Part shown: positions 1 to 8,315 of the stretch, piece after piece
How positions within the stretch are numbered: position 1 is the stretch's first letter
Layout of the letters: every line of letters starts with the position of its first letter
DNA from: a virus
Lineage: Duplodnaviria > Caudoviricetes
Virus record (IMG/VR): IMGVR_UViG_3300022183_000054
Span: 1 to 27,306 of that record
Direction: 5' to 3' (one strand)
DNA length: 27,306 nucleotides
Program-made: the position numbers and the translations under genes
The notes under the pieces: model-generated
The model's input: the letters and a program-made list of their open reading frames with translations, nothing else
Database searches by the model: none
What the model was told of the DNA's origin: nothing

Positions 1-73
1 CCACACACATGGCCCATGGGATGGGCTGGGTGGCTGGCTGGCTGGCTGGATAGGTGGGCTGGTGGCCTGTCAT
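1..73 (-). CDS. possible small ORF running off the left end (MTGHQPTYPASQPATQPIPWAMCV...)
   Basis: ATG at 73 is preceded by the GAGGTAC ribosome-binding motif (78-84) used by several clear genes here. Low-complexity Pro/Gln sequence, truncated by the window edge. Confidence 0.3.
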   Translation of the reverse strand, partial: MTGHQPTYPASQPATQPIPWAMCV

Positions 74-88
74 GTTTGTACCTCGTGA

Positions 89-145
89 TGGGATATCCCA
101 ATGATTCATATTCTGTTCACGATATCCCAATGGTGAACAGAATAT
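89..145. repeat. palindrome plus 13-bp inverted repeat
   Basis: TGGGATATCCCA palindrome at 89-100; ATATTCTGTTCAC (108-120) and GTGAACAGAATAT (133-145) flank the loop GATATCCCAATG, which is also directly repeated at 92-103. Confidence 0.85.
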
Positions 146-148
146 TGG

Positions 149-382
149 TCAATATCCCCTTCTTTTCCGAAGTTCTGCTGCGTATCTTCTGCGGCGTTCA
201 TTGCGTTCTCTGATGGGATTGCGCTTCTTCACCTTGGGTGCTGGTGTTGGAATATTCAGTTCACCATCACGATACATCCGGAATGCAATGGCTGTGGCTT
301 GCTTCTGTGGGAATCCTTCTCTCATCAGAATCAAGATCTTCCGGGATATTGTATAGTCTTTCAGTTGTTTTCTTGTGGGCAT
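149..382 (-). CDS. small basic phage hypothetical protein
   Basis: Start placed at MPTRKQ, adjacent to the upstream gene's stop. The ISxKIxxLxxEGxPQKQAxAIA pattern resembles small uncharacterised phage proteins; Arg/Lys-rich C-terminus. Confidence 0.6.
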   Translation of the reverse strand: MPTRKQLKDYTISRKILILMREGFPQKQATAIAFRMYRDGELNIPTPAPKVKKRNPIRERNERRRRYAAELRKRRGY

Positions 383-383
383 A

Positions 384-785
384 TTATATCCAGTCATCAT
401 CAAAGGTGGTGTCATCTTTGGACAGTGATGGCTGTGTCTTCTCTTCAGTCACAGATTCTTCTTCCATCAGTTCTGTTTCATCAGCTGCAGTCTCTTCTTC
501 CATGGCTTGCAATGTATTCAATGCCAATCGAATCACAGACAAAGTGTCTTCATGATAGGTGTGCTGTTCGAAGCTGACACCATCTTCTTCCCACTGGACA
601 TAGCAGATGATCTCTGCATCTTTGTTGAATACATAGCCTTCAGTGCTGTCATGGCTGAAGTCCCAACCATGTGCGGCACAAAGGTCTGTGAAGAAGTCTG
701 CGTGTAAGCATGGATCAATGGGTGCATCTGATCGAATCCCATTCATCAACATACTGACCAACCGTGTGATATCTGCTATGCTCAT
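384..785 (-). CDS. acidic hypothetical protein
   Basis: Start placed at MSIADIT (785) so that it does not overlap the + strand gene at 821. Very acidic C-terminal tail (EEETAADETELMEEES...DDDWI). Confidence 0.6.
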   Translation of the reverse strand: MSIADITRLVSMLMNGIRSDAPIDPCLHADFFTDLCAAHGWDFSHDSTEGYVFNKDAEIICYVQWEEDGVSFEQHTYHEDTLSVIRLALNTLQAMEEETAADETELMEEESVTEEKTQPSLSKDDTTFDDDWI

Positions 786-820
786 ATAGACAAAGTAACA
801 CATTTTATCAGGATTCACAT

Positions 821-1162
821 ATGCCAACCATAAACGTTCCAAGAGATATTCAGATGATTGCCCAAAGAGCGATTGACTATAACTATTCACTACCCATGTC
901 CAAACGAGCTGCATTCAAAGATGAAGGTGGAAAAAGAGTACCGGGTACCGGAATGAGAACTGCACGAAGGTTGGCATCTGGTCAGGTTGACTTGGACCAG
1001 CTGCGGTTGATGGATGCATGGTTTGCCAGACATGGTGAATCTAAAGCTGAATCCAAAGCACGACAGGACAAGACATCCAAGGCTGCAATTGCTTGGGCTC
1101 TGTGGGGTGGAACACCTGCAAGAAGATGGGTGAAACGTGCCATCAAGAAGCTGGAATCATAG
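821..1162 (+). CDS. conserved phage hypothetical protein (FARH...IAWxLWGG family)
   Basis: Pattern GMRTARRLASG...RLMDAWFARH...SKAAIAWALWGG...RRW matches a widespread uncharacterised phage domain recalled from head-gene neighbourhoods. Confidence 0.65.
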   Translation: MPTINVPRDIQMIAQRAIDYNYSLPMSKRAAFKDEGGKRVPGTGMRTARRLASGQVDLDQLRLMDAWFARHGESKAESKARQDKTSKAAIAWALWGGTPARRWVKRAIKKLES

Positions 1163-1167
1163 TCATC

Positions 1168-1512
1168 TACGACAGATGATATCCTGAATACTACAGATAA
1201 AATCAGATAGATACAGATAAAAACAGGTGCTGTTTTCTTCTATGGCTTCGGTAGGTTCTATACTATAGGTATATATACTATATATATAGTGTATTTTTTT
1301 CCTAAACTTTTTTCATTTTACATATAGTAAAGTATATAAACCATGGTAGCGACCATCGAAAAACAGGCCATTTTTGGCTATGACTTCGATTCACACTCAA
1401 CAAGGTACCAATCAAGCATCTGATTTTATCTGATTTTATCTGATTTTATCTGTCGTAACTGGATGAAAAAGGCACCAGTTGATATCTGAACTGGATGAAA
1501 AAGGCACCAGTT
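1168..1512. other. putative phage replication origin (iterons plus AT-rich core)
   Basis: Non-coding; AT-rich core ~1255-1340; ATCTGATTTT x3 at 1418-1447 with an inverted copy at 1194-1208; 10-bp inverted repeat 1168-1177/1448-1457; lies downstream of the primase/helicase operon. Confidence 0.6.
1457..1512. repeat. 24-bp direct repeat with palindromic ends
   Basis: AACTGGATGAAAAAGGCACCAGTT at 1457-1480 and 1489-1512 (32-bp period); AACTGG/CCAGTT arms. Confidence 0.9.
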
Positions 1513-1528
1513 ACAGTGCAGCTGCATG

Positions 1529-1564
1529 AAAAAACAAAGAAGGCCACCCATTCAGGCAGCCTTC
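1529..1564 (-). terminator. intrinsic terminator
   Basis: Minus strand GAAGGCTGCC-TGAATG-GGTGGCCTTC followed by TTTGTTTTTT. Confidence 0.75.
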
Positions 1565-1600
1565 ACAAACAAACAACTTGATACCATTGGAGAAAGTATC
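1529..1600 (-). ncRNA. candidate ~70-nt small RNA
   Basis: Bounded by a predicted promoter (1607-1635) and terminator (1529-1564); 5' hairpin GATAC...GTATC, unpaired UUGUUUGUUUGU linker, no credible ORF. Confidence 0.4.
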
Positions 1601-1606
1601 AATCAT

Positions 1607-1635
1607 ATTGTATCACATTCTAGAATCTGGAACAA
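1607..1635 (-). promoter_or_regulatory. sigma70-type promoter with extended -10
   Basis: TTGTTC (1635-1630), 17-nt spacer ending TGTGA, TACAAT (1612-1607). Confidence 0.55.
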
Positions 1636-1636
1636 G

Positions 1637-1745
1637 TTATTTACAGGTGTTGATAAGTTATCCACATTGGGTGTTGACAAGTTATCAACAGGTGTTCATA
1701 AGTTATCCACATGGGTGTTGATAAGTTATCCACAGATGTTCATAA
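1637..1745. promoter_or_regulatory. DnaA-box array
   Basis: Perfect TTATCCACA at 1658, 1703 and 1726; variants TTATTTACA at 1637 and TTATCAACA at 1682; inverted variants TGTTGATAA/TGTTGACAA/TGTTCATAA at 1648, 1672, 1693, 1716 and 1737; period 21-24 bp. Confidence 0.85.
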
Positions 1746-1759
1746 GTATTGTCATTCTG

Positions 1760-2377
1760 TTAGAACAGTTTCAATTGTCTTGTGTGCTTTTCAAACCTAG
1801 AGACTGCAGCAGCATGATAGTCTGGGTCAATCTCCCATGCATCCAAGTGCAGTCCATGATTGTGGGCAGCAATGGCAATGGAACCACTGCCAAGATGGGT
1901 ATCAAGAATCTTCATATCGGGTTCTTTGAACTTGTCGAATATCCATGAATACAGAGCTACAGGTTTCTGTGTTGGATGAATCTTGCCGGGTGTTCTATTG
2001 TCGAACCTGAATAGTTTTGCTGGTTTGCTGAATGATGTCCATGCCAATTCCACTTGACTGAATGTATCCCATGGTTGGCATTTATCCCAAACAATTACAC
2101 ATCTTGTAGGTGGAAGATCAAAGTAGTTTCCACCCCAGATGATTTGGTTCTTTGATACTCTGAATAACTGATTCCAATATTCTGCTGGTGGTGCAATATC
2201 CCACTGTTGAATTTTGTTATCCCGGTGCAGAATGATATTCTTTAGTTTCCCACCGCCTTGATATGGATTCTTAGTTTTTATCTCATATGGTGGGTCAACC
2301 ACAGCCAAGTCATAAGTGTTGTCTTCCATGGTTCTCATTGCTTCCAGTGAACATCCAAGATTCAATCTGATTGTCAT
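1760..2377 (-). CDS. orphan N6-adenine/N4-cytosine DNA methyltransferase (beta class)
   Basis: Catalytic DPPY motif precedes HPTQKP and the SAM-binding LDTHLGSGS motif; ATGA overlap with the upstream helicase stop. Confidence 0.9.
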   Translation of the reverse strand: MTIRLNLGCSLEAMRTMEDNTYDLAVVDPPYEIKTKNPYQGGGKLKNIILHRDNKIQQWDIAPPAEYWNQLFRVSKNQIIWGGNYFDLPPTRCVIVWDKCQPWDTFSQVELAWTSFSKPAKLFRFDNRTPGKIHPTQKPVALYSWIFDKFKEPDMKILDTHLGSGSIAIAAHNHGLHLDAWEIDPDYHAAAVSRFEKHTRQLKLF

Positions 2378-3651
2378 CGTTTTCTTCTCCACATTCTTGT
2401 CTTGTGGTCGTTGGAATAAAACTGTTCATATCCACAGTCTCTGCATATCTGTGCAATCCTTCGACTGAATCCACTGTGTTGCATGGCTGCTGACAGCTGC
2501 AGATAATCCATGATGGTGGCTGTGCTGGCTTGGCCTTGGTTGGTCTTGATACATTGCAGCACCTTGACTGTCCACGGGTCATCAATGATGAAGGACTGTT
2601 GGTATTCCATCAGCTGTTCTTCACTGCCTTCTTCCAACCACCATGTCAATCCATTCCGGTAATGGTGCAAGGCTTCTGCCCACAGTTGGATTCGATTGGC
2701 TTCGATGTAGTCAATGTCAATCTTGGAACCCACTTCCACAATCCAGAATCTGCGTTCTGGTCCATCACTGAGGAACTGATAGTCATTGGTGGATGCTGTG
2801 AAGACTGTTCTTCTGGCACGCTGGACAGGCATCTTGGCATAGGCTGGTCTGTATCGGTCACTAGCTGAAGTCAAGAACTGCTTTGCATTGGCTGCTGTTT
2901 TTCCTTGCAGTGCATGCATCTCTGCCAGTTCCCATATCCACACACCAGACTGGTGTAACAGTTCATATGAATCTTTGTGTGAGATGTTGATGTTGGAATC
3001 ACTGAAGTATTCCTCGGATGCAAGTACCTTCAGTGCTGTAGACTTGCGAAGACCTTTGGCACCAACCAACACCAAACATGTATCCATCTTGCAACCGGGT
3101 TCCATCACTCGTGCCACGCAGCTGGTGAACCACTTGCAAGACATCTCTGTCACAAGTTTATCTGCTCCATCTGGTACTTTGGCTTTCAGCACATTGTGGA
3201 AGAACCATTGAATCCTGTCTTCACCATCCCATTCCGGAAGACTGGTCAACCAGTCCTTGATTGGTTCGATGGTGCGTTCTTGGGCCACCATGATGACACT
3301 GGCCCTCAGTGCTTTGTCAGTCACTTTGTATCGGTAGTTCTCTTCGAACTCCAGTGCAATCCGCTCCATCATGGCATCATCAATCATGGTGTCATTCAAC
3401 AGTATCTTGTCACTGTGTTCATTGTAGCAAAGACTGTTGTATCTTGGGTCTTGTCTCAAGATTGTGGCTGTGTTGTATCTGCAGTTCAATGGTGTCAGCA
3501 TTCCGGTTCCACGTTTGGTCACCTTCCGCAGCATATCCCAAGTGTCAATGTCTGCTGATGGTGGGTTTCCTTTGTCCTCAACCTCCACACCCAGTTCATC
3601 TTTGGCCAGTGCCATCAGTGCTTTCAGTTTGTCCAGTTCTTGTCTTGTCAT
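2374..3651 (-). CDS. VapE/VirE-family P-loop ATPase (replicative helicase)
   Basis: PGCKMD...LVGAKGLRKST (Walker A variant), IWELAEM (Walker B), D.YRPAY, STND, ERRF; C-terminal winged-helix-like tail. Confidence 0.85.
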   Translation of the reverse strand: MTRQELDKLKALMALAKDELGVEVEDKGNPPSADIDTWDMLRKVTKRGTGMLTPLNCRYNTATILRQDPRYNSLCYNEHSDKILLNDTMIDDAMMERIALEFEENYRYKVTDKALRASVIMVAQERTIEPIKDWLTSLPEWDGEDRIQWFFHNVLKAKVPDGADKLVTEMSCKWFTSCVARVMEPGCKMDTCLVLVGAKGLRKSTALKVLASEEYFSDSNINISHKDSYELLHQSGVWIWELAEMHALQGKTAANAKQFLTSASDRYRPAYAKMPVQRARRTVFTASTNDYQFLSDGPERRFWIVEVGSKIDIDYIEANRIQLWAEALHHYRNGLTWWLEEGSEEQLMEYQQSFIIDDPWTVKVLQCIKTNQGQASTATIMDYLQLSAAMQHSGFSRRIAQICRDCGYEQFYSNDHKTRMWRRKR

Positions 3652-3686
3652 GATATTCCTATTTGGTTTGATTGTTTGTTTGTTTG

Positions 3687-4559
3687 TTATGCTGTGATAT
3701 TCAGGTCAGTGAATGAACCCCACCAGCCACAGCTGTTCTGATGGTTACATGTTGGCCACTTGTAGCTGTTGGGCAGACTGGGTTCAATGCTAAAGTGAAC
3801 CGCCTTCCGTGAACAGCCCGGACACACAATGTATCTTGCTTCATTCCCTTGGATGGTTGCACCAAGTTCATTGGCTACACGAAGTCTGAATCTGGCATCC
3901 ATGAACACTTCATCCATGGAAGCCTTGCCATTCATGTAGACTCGTGTGGTGGTCATTGGTCTTGGTGGTTCAATGACTATATCAGAATAATCAAGTTCTA
4001 ACAATGGACCAATGTGTGAATGTACTTGGTGGATATGGCTTGGATGCTGTGGATGGTTGACTGGATGGGTGCTGGATGGGATTGCATACCGGAAGTAAAC
4101 TCTGGCACGGTCCTTCAGTGCTTTTGGGTCTGGTTCTCCACGACCAACCACATCTGCCCAAAGTGTTGCAGCTGCAATGGCAGCCCTATCCCAATCCGCA
4201 CCCGGTATCGGTTTGGCCAATGGCAGCACAATCCGATATTTGTGGTGGTGTGGTTTGTGACTGAATGAACTGTGGGCCAACACTGTCCAGTCTGTGAACA
4301 GTCTCCAGCAGTCTATTGGTGCAATCCCATCATCCATGTCAAAGACCAGATGGTGAACTTCGATGGCATTCATCTTGGCACGCTGGCCATCTTTGAACAC
4401 AGTTGGTGACCACAATGGCAGCTGCTGTTTGTCATCCAGTGTTCCAAGGCTGGTCAAGATTCCCTTGCACAGACCATTGATATCCACTTCGATGGTCTGT
4501 CCTCGGTTGGCTTTTACATGGTTGAATGTTGTCAGTTTGAATGTTTGTTTGTTTGTCAT
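3687..4559 (-). CDS. AEP-type primase with C-terminal Zn-binding domain
   Basis: LVFDMDDG, HSSFSH and KYRIVLPL motifs; CPGC...CNHQNSC; GAGG RBS before the ATG at 4559; adjacent to the helicase. Confidence 0.8.
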   Translation of the reverse strand: MTNKQTFKLTTFNHVKANRGQTIEVDINGLCKGILTSLGTLDDKQQLPLWSPTVFKDGQRAKMNAIEVHHLVFDMDDGIAPIDCWRLFTDWTVLAHSSFSHKPHHHKYRIVLPLAKPIPGADWDRAAIAAATLWADVVGRGEPDPKALKDRARVYFRYAIPSSTHPVNHPQHPSHIHQVHSHIGPLLELDYSDIVIEPPRPMTTTRVYMNGKASMDEVFMDARFRLRVANELGATIQGNEARYIVCPGCSRKAVHFSIEPSLPNSYKWPTCNHQNSCGWWGSFTDLNITA

Positions 4560-4567
4560 GTTGTCCT

Positions 4568-4990
4568 CTAGTTGTCTTCTTGCATGGTGTAGATTCTCCA
4601 TTGGGTGTGGGGTTCTTCAGCTTTAGAACAGTACCAGTCTTCTGCAACCACTTGGACCACTTGATTGTCATCCACCCACACTTCAGCCTTGGTCAGCACA
4701 TCCAGAACCATTTTGATCAGATTGTCAATGTCTGGCTTGGTGACCTTTGGGATTCTGGCTGCTGTGTCTCTTTTGCGGTTCAATCTCTGTGGTCTCTTGT
4801 GGCAGAAGGTGACAGACAGTTTGATTGGGCCTGTCACTTGTTCTTCAGTAGCTTGAATGGCACACAGCATGGATTGTTGATATTCCCTGCTCTTTTTGGG
4901 TGTATATGCACCGAATCTGCTCATTCTTGGTCTACCCAATGCCACTGGGTCAGCATGGAATGTTCCTTGGCTGTGAAGTATCCACATCAT
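4568..4990 (-). CDS. rusA: RusA-family Holliday junction resolvase
   Basis: GRPR...YTP N-terminus and the signature KPDIDNLIKMVLDVL...WVDDNQV. Confidence 0.92.
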   Translation of the reverse strand: MMWILHSQGTFHADPVALGRPRMSRFGAYTPKKSREYQQSMLCAIQATEEQVTGPIKLSVTFCHKRPQRLNRKRDTAARIPKVTKPDIDNLIKMVLDVLTKAEVWVDDNQVVQVVAEDWYCSKAEEPHTQWRIYTMQEDN

Positions 4991-5487
4991 CTATTCAACC
5001 TTTGTTCTGTTGCTATATGGTCACACCAATGTTGGAACAATGTTTGACCATCTTCTTCACCCAGTATCTGGGCAATGGCCTGAAGATAATGATAGTCCGG
5101 GTATGATTCACCACGAATCCACTTGTGGATGCTGAATCTGGAACATCCAACAATGTCTGCTATGCCTTGGATACTGTGGTAGCTGGCTTGGATGGTTACT
5201 CGCAAGATGATATTGAACTTCGGCTTCTGTAGTTCAAAGATTGTTTTATGTGCCCAATCCACACACACCTGACTGTCATGGAAGTCAATGTGGCTGTAGA
5301 CTGTTCCTTCATGGGTCAATACTGCTTCCCAGACATAGCAAGTATATTCTGGGTGCCAGTATCGCTTGACAATCCCTACCTGAGCACCATCGAAGTAGAT
5401 GTCTATGTTGTCAATGCTGTCTCCAAACTGTTTGCGTGCTGCAGTTCGGCCATGTCTTCTGATGTAGTCTCTGATTTCTTTGTTCAT
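4987..5487 (-). CDS. protein with C-terminal XRE/Cro-type HTH
   Basis: [26 protein letters not shown]...LQAIAQILG; overlaps both neighbours at start/stop codons. Confidence 0.7.
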
Positions 5488-6026
5488 TGTGAATCTCCCA
5501 GGTTCTTTGCTAGTGTCAATCCTCTTTCATGCAATACTTCAATGATTTCATTTAGGGACTTGCGACCGAAGTTTTTTGTTTTTAACAGCCTATCTGGTGA
5601 CCATGTCACCAATTCATGAATGTATTCGATACCAATTTTTTCCAAACAGTGTGCTGCTCTGACTGACAGTTCCAATGTATCAACATGCTTCTGAAGTTCT
5701 TTCCTGTGTTTCATCTCATATGATATATATGAAACTTCACAGTCAACCACAATTGTCACTCTGTACATCCAGATTCCAGTCATAGTTCCCATGTTAAACT
5801 CATGTACTGCTGCAAGTGTAGTATTTGATACAAAGATCGAATCAATCAATGGATTGTTCATCATGGTTTTACAGATTTTCTCAATCTGTGTGACATCTAT
5901 TGAATCTAAGATTTGATCTTGTGTGATATTGAAGTCTGGTCTGGATGTCTTCCAGCTGACTGGAACTGTTAGATTCAGACTGAATGTTCTGCCTTCATCG
6001 AATCGGTTTAGTTGTATATGGTCCAT
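5484..6026 (-). CDS. protein with RNA polymerase alpha subunit C-terminal domain
   Basis: [58 protein letters not shown] aligns by eye with the RpoA CTD; ~115-aa unrelated N-terminus; AGGAG RBS. Confidence 0.9.
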
Positions 6027-6037
6027 TGTGTTTTCTC

Positions 6038-6238
6038 CTAGATGTACATGAATGTTTGTTGTATTTTAATCAATCGGCCATTCTTATTGTTGGTAGCCAA
6101 CAGTGCTGACCAATCATCATACTTTGACAGCTGCCGAATCCAATGCTGGGCTGCTGTTCTCGTGTGGAATATCTTGGTCAATACTTCACTGGCATGGTCT
6201 GCTTTGTAGATTGCAATGTGCAGTTCTGTGATTCTCAT
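6038..6238 (-). CDS. small hypothetical protein
   Basis: 66 aa, ATGA-coupled to the upstream ORF within the early operon. Confidence 0.6.
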
Positions 6239-6372
6239 AATGCACCACCATTGACCAATGTGGCAATGTATGCCAACAGTTTGAATGAAGGGAATATCAG
6301 CATAGCCATTCCCAGTGCCATGATTGCTTGTCCAATGGTTTGTCCAAGTGCGGTTGCTTGTTGTTTGTTCAT
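6235..6372 (-). CDS. 45-aa hydrophobic membrane peptide (not in ORF track)
   Basis: [45 protein letters not shown]; AGGAG RBS at 6381-6385; ATGA overlaps at both ends. Confidence 0.7.
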   Translation of the reverse strand: MNKQQATALGQTIGQAIMALGMAMLIFPSFKLLAYIATLVNGGAL

Positions 6373-6524
6373 TTTGAAGTCTCCTTAGCTTCTAGTTGTG
6401 TAAGTATTGCGATTGCTACATTCATCAGTCTGCTGATGTTACGTAGTTCTTCTAGGTCTTTGTTTTGATATGCTGTTATGGCTTGCGCTTCCAGCTGCCT
6501 GATGTATTTTTGAATGGCATTCAT
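6369..6524 (-). CDS. 51-aa helical hypothetical protein (not in ORF track)
   Basis: MNAIQKYIRQLEAQAITAYQNKDLEELRNISRLMNVAIAILTQLEAKETSK; AGGTAC RBS; ATGA overlap with the next gene. Confidence 0.7.
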   Translation of the reverse strand: MNAIQKYIRQLEAQAITAYQNKDLEELRNISRLMNVAIAILTQLEAKETSK

Positions 6525-6547
6525 TGTTTGTACCTGTGTGGAATAAT

Positions 6548-6567
6548 AAGGAGCCCGAAGGCCCCTT
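6548..6567 (-). terminator. cUUCGg tetraloop hairpin (weak terminator or mRNA stabiliser)
   Basis: AAGGGGCC-TTCG-GGCTCCTT followed by ATTATT; poor U tract. Confidence 0.55.
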
Positions 6568-6575
6568 GGGGATTG

Positions 6576-6803
6576 TTATCTTCTGCTCTCTTCGATTGCT
6601 TCGATGGTATCTAATAGAATATCTACGGCTTCCTCTCCATTACGTTGCTCATATTGATCATATAGATAAGCCTTAACCATTCTTTCTTCGTGAGAATATT
6701 TATCCCAAGGTTTCGCCATATCGGTTAGAACTGCGATAATCATATCATCGCTCATCTTAGAGATTCTGTTTTTTAATCGTTGGATTGCTGCTTCTTTAGT
6801 CAT
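6576..6803 (-). CDS. first early gene, 75-aa hypothetical protein
   Basis: Start MTKEAAIQ with GAGGTAC RBS (6807-6813), just downstream of the strong promoter. Confidence 0.75.
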   Translation of the reverse strand: MTKEAAIQRLKNRISKMSDDMIIAVLTDMAKPWDKYSHEERMVKAYLYDQYEQRNGEEAVDILLDTIEAIEESRR

Positions 6804-6848
6804 TTTGTACCTCTGTTTGTTGTTTGATGGTTTGTCCATCTGTTTATA

Positions 6849-6877
6849 AGTATACACAGTCTGTTCATGTTTGTCAA
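6849..6877 (-). promoter_or_regulatory. near-consensus sigma70 early promoter
   Basis: TTGACA (6877-6872), 17 nt, TATACT (6854-6849); AT-rich UP-like tract at 6878-6898. Confidence 0.85.
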
Positions 6878-6897
6878 CAAAAGATTTATTTTTATTT

Positions 6898-6908
6898 TGT
6901 GTTATACT
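6898..6908 (+). promoter_or_regulatory. extended -10 promoter for a leaderless mRNA
   Basis: TGTGT-TATACT, then 6 nt to the ATG at 6915; no Shine-Dalgarno. Confidence 0.6.
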
Positions 6909-6914
6909 GTGTCC

Positions 6915-7466
6915 ATGACTGATTATCCGATTATGACAGTACAGCAGCGCATGACATATGGTGAACGGAACTTTCTCCAGTATGTCAAGCCAATGGTGCA
7001 AGATGCTTTCCCCGGTACTTGGTACAGCTGCAATGGTACAGAACTGGACACTGACCATGGTGTTGACTTCATCATTGTGAATGGTGCTCAGGTCACCACT
7101 ATTGCTGCCAGATGTTGGATGGCCTATCCACAGTCACACTTTGCACTGAGATGGAGAAGAACCGGCCAGATTGACAGGCATCTGGAACTGGATACCAGAT
7201 TGCATGCATTCAAGACTGGTGGTCTGATGACTGATTGGACCATTGAAGGATTCCATTGGGAAGGCAGATCATATGTGGCTGCAATACCCACCAAGAAGCT
7301 GTTTGCACATGTTGACAAGTTCTATGATTGCCTTCCAACCTTCGAACTGTTTAACCCAAACAAAGACAGTGTATTCTTCAAGAGAGTGCCATTCTTGAGA
7401 GTCCATGATGATGTCATCAAGTTTATTGGACCCTGTCCACCTGTGAACGTGTCAAGCTGTCCTTGA
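6915..7466 (+). CDS. hypothetical protein, possibly a divergent PD-(D/E)XK nuclease fold
   Basis: E...LDTDHGVDFIIV...TTIAAR pattern resembles the G(V/I)D-containing phage nuclease-like proteins, but the (D/E)xK motif is not intact. Confidence 0.5.
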   Translation: MTDYPIMTVQQRMTYGERNFLQYVKPMVQDAFPGTWYSCNGTELDTDHGVDFIIVNGAQVTTIAARCWMAYPQSHFALRWRRTGQIDRHLELDTRLHAFKTGGLMTDWTIEGFHWEGRSYVAAIPTKKLFAHVDKFYDCLPTFELFNPNKDSVFFKRVPFLRVHDDVIKFIGPCPPVNVSSCP

Positions 7467-7728
7467 TATCTTTGACATCATCTTTCAGAACATGCACTTC
7501 ACCATTCAGTTCTTTCATGCTGGTGTTTAATGTCTCTAAACCTTCCCGGTATACTTTCCGGTCTTCATTGTGTGATTCAACAATGTGATCTATTTGTTCA
7601 AGATGCTTGTCCACCCAGATTGGAAGGTGTGTTGCAACCCATCTTCCAATGTAAAAGATGGCAGATATGCATAATGCTAAAGCTGCCACGGGTCCTGTCA
7701 GTATTTGAATCAATGTATCTTCTGTCAT
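7423..7728 (-). CDS. putative holin
   Basis: One N-terminal hydrophobic helix (ILTGPVAALALCISAIFYIG) plus coiled coil; ATGA-coupled to the endolysin. Confidence 0.55.
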   Translation of the reverse strand: MTEDTLIQILTGPVAALALCISAIFYIGRWVATHLPIWVDKHLEQIDHIVESHNEDRKVYREGLETLNTSMKELNGEVHVLKDDVKDIKDSLTRSQVDRVQ

Positions 7729-8315
7729 CTGCTTTTGCTCCAGCTGTCCAAACCTTGTGCCATTCCAATTGCAATCTGAGACATTCCGAATGGTGTCAAT
7801 AAGTCTGTGTGTGTGTCCATGAATATCGGTTCGCAGCAGATGGCAATGGGCTTGCCAACATTCTTGATGGTGTGCCAAGCGTTCTTTGTCCAGTCATCTG
7901 GCTTGGCTGCAATCACCTTCTGCTTCTTGACTGTGATCACCCTGCCCAGATTGGATGCCAATGCAGCTGCGAGTTCTTTTCCTTGGGTGGATATGTGATG
8001 ATGGAAGAATGCACCATAATCACCACCACCAGCATTCAGATGCATGGCCAGATATACCATCTTGGTGTCATCGAATCGGCCTGAATAGTCATTCACTCTG
8101 ATGTGTCGTTCAGTATAGGAACCATCACTGATGGGAATCACTTGGTGTCCAAGGTCCAACAATCTCTTTTCCAACATCAATGACAGATACCCGGTCCAGT
8201 GTGCTTCTTGTTCATCACTGGATATCTGGCCATCTTGATTGATGTCCACACCTGCACCACGGTCATCAACCTTGGCTGGCTTGCCTGCATGCTGTCTGTC
8301 TATGAATACTAACAT
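7725..8315 (-). CDS. N-acetylmuramoyl-L-alanine amidase endolysin (Amidase_3-like)
   Basis: VFIDRQHAG, conserved Glu (EQEA), YLAMHLNAG, ICCEPIFM: Zn-binding His/Glu/His plus catalytic Glu pattern. Confidence 0.8.
   Translation of the reverse strand: MLVFIDRQHAGKPAKVDDRGAGVDINQDGQISSDEQEAHWTGYLSLMLEKRLLDLGHQVIPISDGSYTERHIRVNDYSGRFDDTKMVYLAMHLNAGGGDYGAFFHHHISTQGKELAAALASNLGRVITVKKQKVIAAKPDDWTKNAWHTIKNVGKPIAICCEPIFMDTHTDLLTPFGMSQIAIGMAQGLDSWSKSR

Follow-up and report, generated by a model that had tools for sequence, protein, structure and literature searches.

A candidate phage small RNA predicted to pair with the translation start of its own replication helicase

RNAII, the antisense RNA of the plasmid replicon pMV158, is encoded on the strand facing its target and is complementary to it over a long stretch, and the c4 RNA of phage P1 is a short phage RNA that acts on the phage's own transcripts through short complementary sites. 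Most phage RNAs directed at the phage's own genes are described as antisense RNAs that work at lysis-lysogeny switches, and those acting in trans as hitting mainly host genes (PMC12197685). Lambda OOP, P22 sar, lambda PreS and VP882 VpdS are phage-encoded small RNAs affecting phage development, a description that would also fit the RNA predicted here; cII and ant are the antisense targets of OOP and sar, respectively, PreS is directed at dnaN of the host, and VpdS uses Hfq to act on RNAs of both host and phage (PMC12197685). None of the four, as far as the available portion of that source extends, is aimed at its own helicase start, where the RNA described here is instead predicted to pair. 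The P4 CI RNA is a further short phage RNA that works on its own transcripts via short complementary sites, and it limits the P4 replication genes (PMC4825925). Outside phages, GcvB is the established case of a G/U seed that silences C/A-rich enhancers (PMC3879156), and OppZ and CarZ, encoded at the 3' ends of the operons with which they are paired, exert negative feedback on translation (PMC7398697). A host small RNA against a phage mRNA has also been described, a case that does not overlap with the present finding (PMC13250501). Our literature search, which covered mostly papers open without subscription, found no phage small RNA directed against its own helicase start; PMC12197685 lists a further 38 unassigned phage sRNAs in a supplementary table outside that coverage.

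The DNA analysed here, referred to as the window, is the whole of one 27,306-base contig from an uncultured tailed phage, recognizable as such by its genes for terminase, capsid, tape measure and amidase; a scan of 34 window proteins found no integrase. The early operon runs on the minus strand as far as 1760, and its genes specify, in order, a protein with an RNA polymerase alpha C-terminal domain, RusA, a primase-like protein, the VapE helicase and a methyltransferase. The predicted small RNA cassette lies directly 3' of this last gene, at the end of the early operon, a point absent from the first-pass annotation of the sequence. Because of this position, the cassette terminator also terminates the early operon. 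The features of the cassette and its surroundings are as follows.

1189 to 1457, no strand assigned: origin-like region, inverted ACAGAT-type repeat arrays around an AT-rich core, with 43-nt arms
1529 to 1600, minus strand: predicted 72-nt small RNA starting at G1600, made up of a hairpin, a G/U strand and the terminator, without a conserved frame
1529 to 1564, minus strand: intrinsic terminator with an 11-bp stem and a U tail, which also closes the early operon
1565 to 1577, minus strand: unpaired G/U seed GUUGUUUGUUUGU, predicted from the fold, the 12-mer count and the site search
1580 to 1600, minus strand: predicted 5' hairpin whose loop carries UCUCCA (anti-Shine-Dalgarno-like), from the fold
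1607 to 1635, minus strand: sigma-70-type promoter TTGTTC-17-TACAAT with a TG extension, from the window letters and family conservation
1638 to 1745, no strand assigned: DnaA-type 9-mer array with seven strict boxes at 1648-1734 and four inverted pairs, accessory in the family
1760 to 2377, minus strand: DNA methyltransferase, the last early gene in the window, in a slot that is variable among relatives
2374 to 3651, minus strand: VapE-family helicase (Pfam PF05272, E 3.7e-65)
6849 to 6877, minus strand: early promoter TTGACA-17-TATACT, 11/12 consensus, heading the operon that contains all predicted targets

Like the R1 element of GcvB, the predicted phage RNA ends in a terminator and presents an unstructured, G/U-rich seed to C/A-rich elements in or beside the ribosome-binding sites of several targets (PMC3879156). 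GcvB itself is encoded on the chromosome, its seed is highly conserved and its targets are amino-acid genes (PMC3879156), whereas the phage seed diverges together with the phage's own helicase leader. The features of the GcvB type that we found are a promoter and start (both from conservation only), a terminator, an unpaired seed with short complementarity close to the ribosome-binding sites of its predicted targets, and no conserved frame. OppZ and CarZ differ in being cut by RNase E from metabolic operons (PMC7398697), while the phage cassette has its own conserved promoter and a predicted replication target. P4 CI arises by processing of a leader and acts in the lysogen through premature termination (PMC4825925), whereas the phage RNA is operon-distal and matches translation starts. 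Rfam returned three weak matches far under the gathering threshold for window positions 900-2000 (BTnc201 at 18.7 of 105 bits), and no match to GcvB or any other curated family at eight related loci. The predicted RNA thus lies outside every curated family, and from its sequence it appears to work like known trans-acting small RNAs.

The elements that the first-pass annotation had described for this cassette are all present in the window. The minus-strand promoter consists of TTGTTC (1635-1630), a 17-nt spacer and TGTGA-TACAAT, with the -10 at 1612-1607. A generic scanner missed it because the -35 matches the consensus at 3/6 bases; that scan was uninformative here, giving 17 other matches within positions 1-8000, which is the chance level. 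The intrinsic terminator was found downstream, with an 11-bp stem at 1564-1539 followed by a U tail, and all 11 pairs are kept in 5/5 aligned sequences, with changes on both sides in two of them. The RNA from 1600 to 1529 folds, as had been proposed, into a 5' hairpin, an unpaired GUUGUUUGUUUGU and the terminator; its stability has a z-score of -3.87, and none of 200 shuffles was equally stable. The UCUCCA of the 5' hairpin loop, seen in the window's cluster and its sister cluster, is a possible second seed, and the stem register of this hairpin is lost in the sister cluster's alignment. Two other explanations of the cassette were rejected. A peptide-coding RNA was set aside as the longest frames in 37 RNAs span 0-23 codons and are unrelated across clades, and a two-way terminator as the cause of the G/U stretch was set aside as the opposite strand is without a U tract.

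To place the cassette in a family, we searched for loci with the helicase and the convergent neighbour gene, which gave 274 loci besides the window; 235 sequences (window included) with the helicase and downstream DNA were grouped into 51 clusters at 95% identity. A cassette comprising a -10 element, a strand of 23-76 nt that is mostly G/U-rich and a terminator follows the last early gene in 37 of the 51 clusters, down to 47% helicase identity, with six of the 37 placed by hand. The RNAs predicted for the family are 60-80 bases long. The remaining 14 clusters comprise five with no usable intergenic region, four with no terminator and five with no -10 and G/U strand; for nine clusters without a recognizable cassette, the search window was probably misplaced in several. 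An unbiased re-scan recovered a strong -10 in 33/37 clusters against a shuffle mean of 12.7 (maximum 21), and a -10 together with TTG 16-18 nt away in 16/37 against 1.3 in shuffles; the third -35 position is G in 28/37. A pyrimidine-purine step, the usual signature of a transcription start, lies 6 nt past the -10 in 31/37 clusters, compared with 1-14 at other spacers. G and T make up 69% of the single strand, compared with 48% of early coding DNA. Judged by sequence comparison, promoter, start signature, G/U strand and terminator are conserved in 37/51 clusters. Conservation of the promoter favours a primary transcript. A search of sequencing runs listed four containing this DNA, none of them recorded as RNA.

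Several further observations concern the surroundings of the cassette. Between helicase and cassette, relatives have either no gene or a variety of genes (among them other methyltransferase-like and exonuclease-like frames), even at 98-100% relatedness; close relatives of the window phage exist, and in them the methylase slot is swapped or skipped. The -35 of the RNA promoter (TTGA..) overlaps the helicase TGA stop in L150, L154, L158 and others. The 3' end of the linker carries a recurring TGGTTG motif directly ahead of the terminator in L150, L171, L103, L109, L105, L158, L168 and L108, and CAACCA occurs in the helicase leaders of several of these phages. Strong hairpins (-17 to -25 kcal/mol) stand just before a gene following the helicase in L135, L138, L184, L167 and L169; in them a -10-like sequence is base-paired to both the ATG and the ribosome-binding site of this exonuclease-like gene, so named from the look of its sequence alone. 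In T4, late-gene hairpins conceal a start in read-through mRNA that is exposed by an internal promoter; by analogy, the hairpins in these five phages would hide the start in read-through mRNA and an internal promoter would free it.

The targets proposed for the window RNA are given below.

3671 to 3687, minus strand: main predicted target, a C/A-rich leader 20-36 nt before the helicase AUG, the top site on the whole minus strand
4545 to 4556, minus strand: second predicted target, covering codons 2-5 of a primase-like gene that runs from its ATG at 4559 to 3687
6360 to 6372, minus strand: third predicted target, the start of a 45-aa early gene (6372), from the match and the site search
6524 to 6531, minus strand: match of 8 nt where a 51-aa early gene starts, weak taken alone

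The complement of the seed, ACAAACAAACAA, had been noted in the helicase leader and in the primase, and it does occur in the leader in two overlapping copies (3672-3683 and 3676-3687) and in primase codons 2-5 (4545-4556). It is found four times in the window, the fourth copy being the complement of the seed itself (1565-1576), where 0.02 are expected; none of 100 shuffles reached four copies, although these were dinucleotide shuffles that do not model low-complexity tracts. The shorter matches that had been listed, of 10 nt at 6360-6369 and 8 nt at 6524-6531, are both present as well. When sites along the entire minus strand are ranked by predicted pairing, the helicase leader, the primase start and the beginning of the 45-aa gene (6372) occupy the first three places, and no shuffled linker matched their observed energy in 60 trials (run with one early start at 6781, not 6803). 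Predicted pairing is stronger at early starts (mean -9.7 kcal/mol, n=10) than at late starts (-6.9 kcal/mol, n=23; p 0.029). In the window, UUGUUUGUUUGU pairs with ACAAACAAACAA, and RNA and helicase target are encoded on the same strand 2 kb apart, with a match of 12-13 nt. The matches of the primase-like gene to PHROG primases are weak (E 1e-6).

To ask whether the seed tracks its targets across the family, every RNA was scored against every helicase start region, and own pairs were compared with foreign pairs. A helicase start was available in 34 of the 37 clusters (three were without), and tests requiring upstream DNA used n=29. At the helicase start, own pairs have an advantage of -2.34 kcal/mol, which was reached by none of 100,000 permutations and, when permutation was restricted to clades at 60%, 70% or 80% identity, by none of 20,000 each. 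In 17 control windows internal to the helicase, the corresponding value is 0.04 +/- 0.36. Among 17 sister pairs, the own target is favoured in 11, the swap in four, and two are tied (p 0.004). A perfect Watson-Crick match of at least 9 nt is found in 18/34 own pairs compared with 122/1122 foreign pairs; in the other 16 of the 34 clusters the perfect match at the helicase start is below 9 nt, and L068, L109, L167, L188, L186 and L251 have essentially no predicted helicase pairing. The co-variation persists under RNAduplex and with three window sizes, being weakest at the 80% grouping (1-81 of 20,000), and it holds with the window genome removed. Control windows of 40 nt placed 3' of the terminator gave +0.38 to -1.11 against -2.42 for the linker; since they reach -1.11, the baseline of the co-variation is not always zero. 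The best own site across the early region falls within the helicase start window, 1.4% of that region, in 9/29 phages compared with 7/116 foreign pairs. For 17/29 phages the best own site lies outside called start windows; these sites include one uncalled start and one longer helicase leader, and most others are coding.

Individual pairs illustrate the re-matching. The sister phage L064, whose helicase is 91% identical to that of the window, pairs UUGAUUGUUGU with ACAACAAUCAA. L173 has a perfect, non-repetitive match of 16 nt, L169 the non-repetitive match TAATATGACAA, and L088 a non-repetitive 12-nt match on the gene preceding the helicase, while L196 and L167 show non-repetitive pairing across start codons. 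Across the family, the seed co-varies with each phage's own helicase start. This answers the low-complexity caveat attached to the first-pass annotation, which had named both helicase and primase as targets. The helicase half of that claim is borne out by the co-variation; the primase half is weak family-wide, with a score reached by 204/20,000 permutations, 243-319 within clades and 515 without the window genome. For other early genes, co-variation fades in close clades (1255/20,000 at 80%). These weaker signals make the helicase the common target of the family and the others lineage-specific at best.

We further compared the helicase with proteins of known structure. The sole solved homologue at a significant score is PDB 7PDS (E 3.7e-39), a complex of SaPI1 Rep1 with DNA; Rep1 is a self-loading initiator-helicase, and the SaPI ori, located downstream of rep, has opposed repeats flanking an AT-rich core (PMC9371898). 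The phage shares with SaPI1 the succession of a primase gene, a homologous helicase and opposed repeats around an AT-rich core, but the available part of that source describes no small RNA between rep and ori, where the phage has a predicted one (PMC9371898). Between the terminator and the convergent gene, 32/32 clusters examined contain an inverted repeat, 10 nt or longer, that flanks an AT-rich core, a count that has no chance control. By analogy with SaPI1, we infer that the helicase is the initiator and that 1189-1457 is the origin. The predicted effect of the phage RNA is comparable to that of pMV158 RNAII in being feedback on an initiator, but the phage RNA acts in trans (PMC5737340): it is encoded on the same strand as its target at a distance of 1.3-2 kb and pairs over 9-16 nt. 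Pairing at an initiator start, as in RNAII, is predicted for the phage RNA and co-varies, the initiator role being assigned by homology to Rep1. Two exact 24-nt direct repeats ending AAAAGGCACCAGTT lie at 1457-1512 between the terminator and the origin-like region, and units similar to them occur in L041 and L142.

Taken together, we judge it reasonably probable that the cassette is a small RNA gene with its own promoter and terminator, whose seed pairs with the phage's own helicase start and lowers translation of the initiator-like helicase. As the exposed stretch changes in step with the translation-start region of the phage's own helicase, the pairing is likely to throttle the copying of phage DNA. 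Host RNA polymerase would transcribe the RNA from every genome copy, so that the RNA would accumulate with copy number and time. The seed would then cover the C/A-rich enhancer, the Shine-Dalgarno sequence or the first codons of the helicase and, depending on the lineage, the starts of the primase or of small early genes. The outcome would be a delayed, copy-dependent negative feedback on initiation at the neighbouring origin, in which repression, its sign and its timing are all presumed from the pairing pattern.

The alternative that survives best is that the pairing belongs to the early operon's own 3' end, as a long-range contact in cis or through a processed 3' UTR fragment, with the internal promoter playing a minor part. 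Because the terminator ends the early operon, every full-length early mRNA bears the seed; the -10 lies no more than 40 nt from the last stop codon in 34/37 clusters, and OppZ and CarZ repress their own operons likewise (PMC7398697). However, the -10, the -35 TTG and the start signature all occur far above chance, and processing alone needs none of them, which makes this reading unlikely.

A second alternative is the circuit proposed in the first-pass annotation, where host DnaA bound to the array switches the small RNA promoter and so links translation of helicase and primase to host replication. The window contains 10 TTRTCMACA boxes, seven of them at 1648-1734, against 2.5 expected genome-wide, and the array forms four 19-bp inverted pairs, with boxes 1 bp apart and a period of 21-24 bp. 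A box does adjoin the promoter, as had been stated, but the nearest one (TTATTTACA, plus strand, 1638-1646) is degenerate, with two mismatches. In 6/6 aligned sequences of the window cluster and its sister, the proximal box keeps a constant distance to the -35, which it adjoins or overlaps, L187 is alike on another branch, and DnaA is described as controlling promoters with nearby boxes (PMC11317965). However, the array is upstream of the promoter in only 3/37 clusters (the window genome's cluster, the sister cluster and L187), downstream of the terminator in another 3/37 and absent from 31/37. Box number varies from 5 to 9 in close relatives and is about 1 in L142 (99% helicase identity), where an assembly collapse is possible. 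E. coli DnaA prefers co-oriented box pairs 2-3 bp apart (PMC11317965), and the window genome has inverted pairs with no such double box; L113, L189 and L187 have co-oriented doubles, 3 bp apart. The array is thus not conserved with the promoter across the family, and array-less clusters with a helicase start (n=28) show the same co-variation (0 and 3 of 20,000). The small RNA half of the proposed circuit is therefore upheld by the conserved cassette and the co-variation, whereas a conserved DnaA gate is not, and we regard the full circuit as quite unlikely.

It is therefore improbable that the DnaA-type boxes act as a switch throughout the family. In genomes with an upstream array, DnaA may have a local effect, since the nearest box there abuts or overlaps the -35; the window's sub-clade is such a case. 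From its distribution, the array appears to be an accessory element that has been gained or lost repeatedly in the spacer on the origin side; if it modifies the promoter at all, it would do so only in particular lineages. A role tied to the origin, such as a helper site, a roadblock to read-through or a DnaA sink, would fit both of its positions better than promoter gating; the array may also be an operator for a phage repressor. L134 has a cluster of three DnaA-type boxes about 5.7 kb upstream of the helicase stop, a site other than that of the origin-side arrays. Nothing on phage DnaA-box arrays was found in the literature covered, mostly papers open without subscription.

A third alternative is immunity or incompatibility, in which the RNA mainly shuts off the helicase of incoming kin that have the same leader, and seeds grow apart so as to evade one another, perhaps with a plasmid-like carrier state. 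Swapping the pairs of the window and L064 loses 13 kcal/mol in total despite their 91% helicase identity, the lack of an integrase among the proteins scanned is in keeping with such a state, and the copy number of pMV158 is set by antisense control of its initiator (PMC5737340). There is, however, no sign of a carrier state, and the scan of cellular genomes for the helicase gave just two distant matches (34% in a Myxococcota assembly and a partial one at 40%). Slippage in short repeats could also drive seed drift, and the molecular step is identical to that of the helicase-pairing RNA favoured above. We therefore consider immunity very unlikely as a separate explanation. Least probable of all is a plain terminator with a U-rich upstream sequence and no pairing function, matched by C/A enhancers through composition or a DNA-level inverted duplication: the window seed and targets are of low complexity, the coding strand is rich in CAAA (210 vs 112) and foreign G/U-rich RNAs pair with many helicase leaders (median own rank 5/37), but the own-target advantage is limited to the start window and absent from the 17 internal ones, it survived within-clade permutation, matches of 11-16 nt are non-repetitive, and the promoter signature is conserved.

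Other parts of the early region also deserve mention. At its C terminus, the early protein encoded at 5484-6026 (minus strand) bears a copy of the C-terminal domain of RNA polymerase alpha (PF03118, E 4.6e-24), which is at most 68% identical to bacterial RpoA across the PF03118 part, making the protein a possible decoy or regulator. The start region of its gene forms a two-part predicted duplex with the seed and hairpin loop of the RNA. Taxon names were attached to 5/120 RNA polymerase alpha homologues (two Deltaproteobacteria, one Pseudomonadota, one Proteobacteria and one NC10), and the nearest annotated phages, among the matches listed, are 28-34% identical. Three window genes, at 6915 (+), 8315 (-) and 785 (-), share the extended -10 of the RNA promoter, with TG-N-TANNNT followed by ATG 6 nt on, a pattern suggesting leaderless mRNAs from extended -10 promoters; this spacing shifts the likely starts of the 6867+ and 914- frames.

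Two features that were apparently linked in one genome are separated by the family comparison, the small RNA being a family trait and the DnaA-type array an accessory. A bolder composite joins plasmid-style copy-number control, seeds re-evolved by lineage as RNA immunity groups, and a DnaA array in the small RNA promoter of some lineages, the window included, such that the host's replication state sets initiation; this we hold to be improbable. On the favoured reading of a small RNA that pairs with its own helicase start, the pairs of seed and target in this uncultured phage family form a natural series, in which every seed has been re-matched to the replication helicase of its own phage, ready-made for reporter tests of own against swapped partners. 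If true, this would be direct RNA feedback on the initiation of phage DNA replication.
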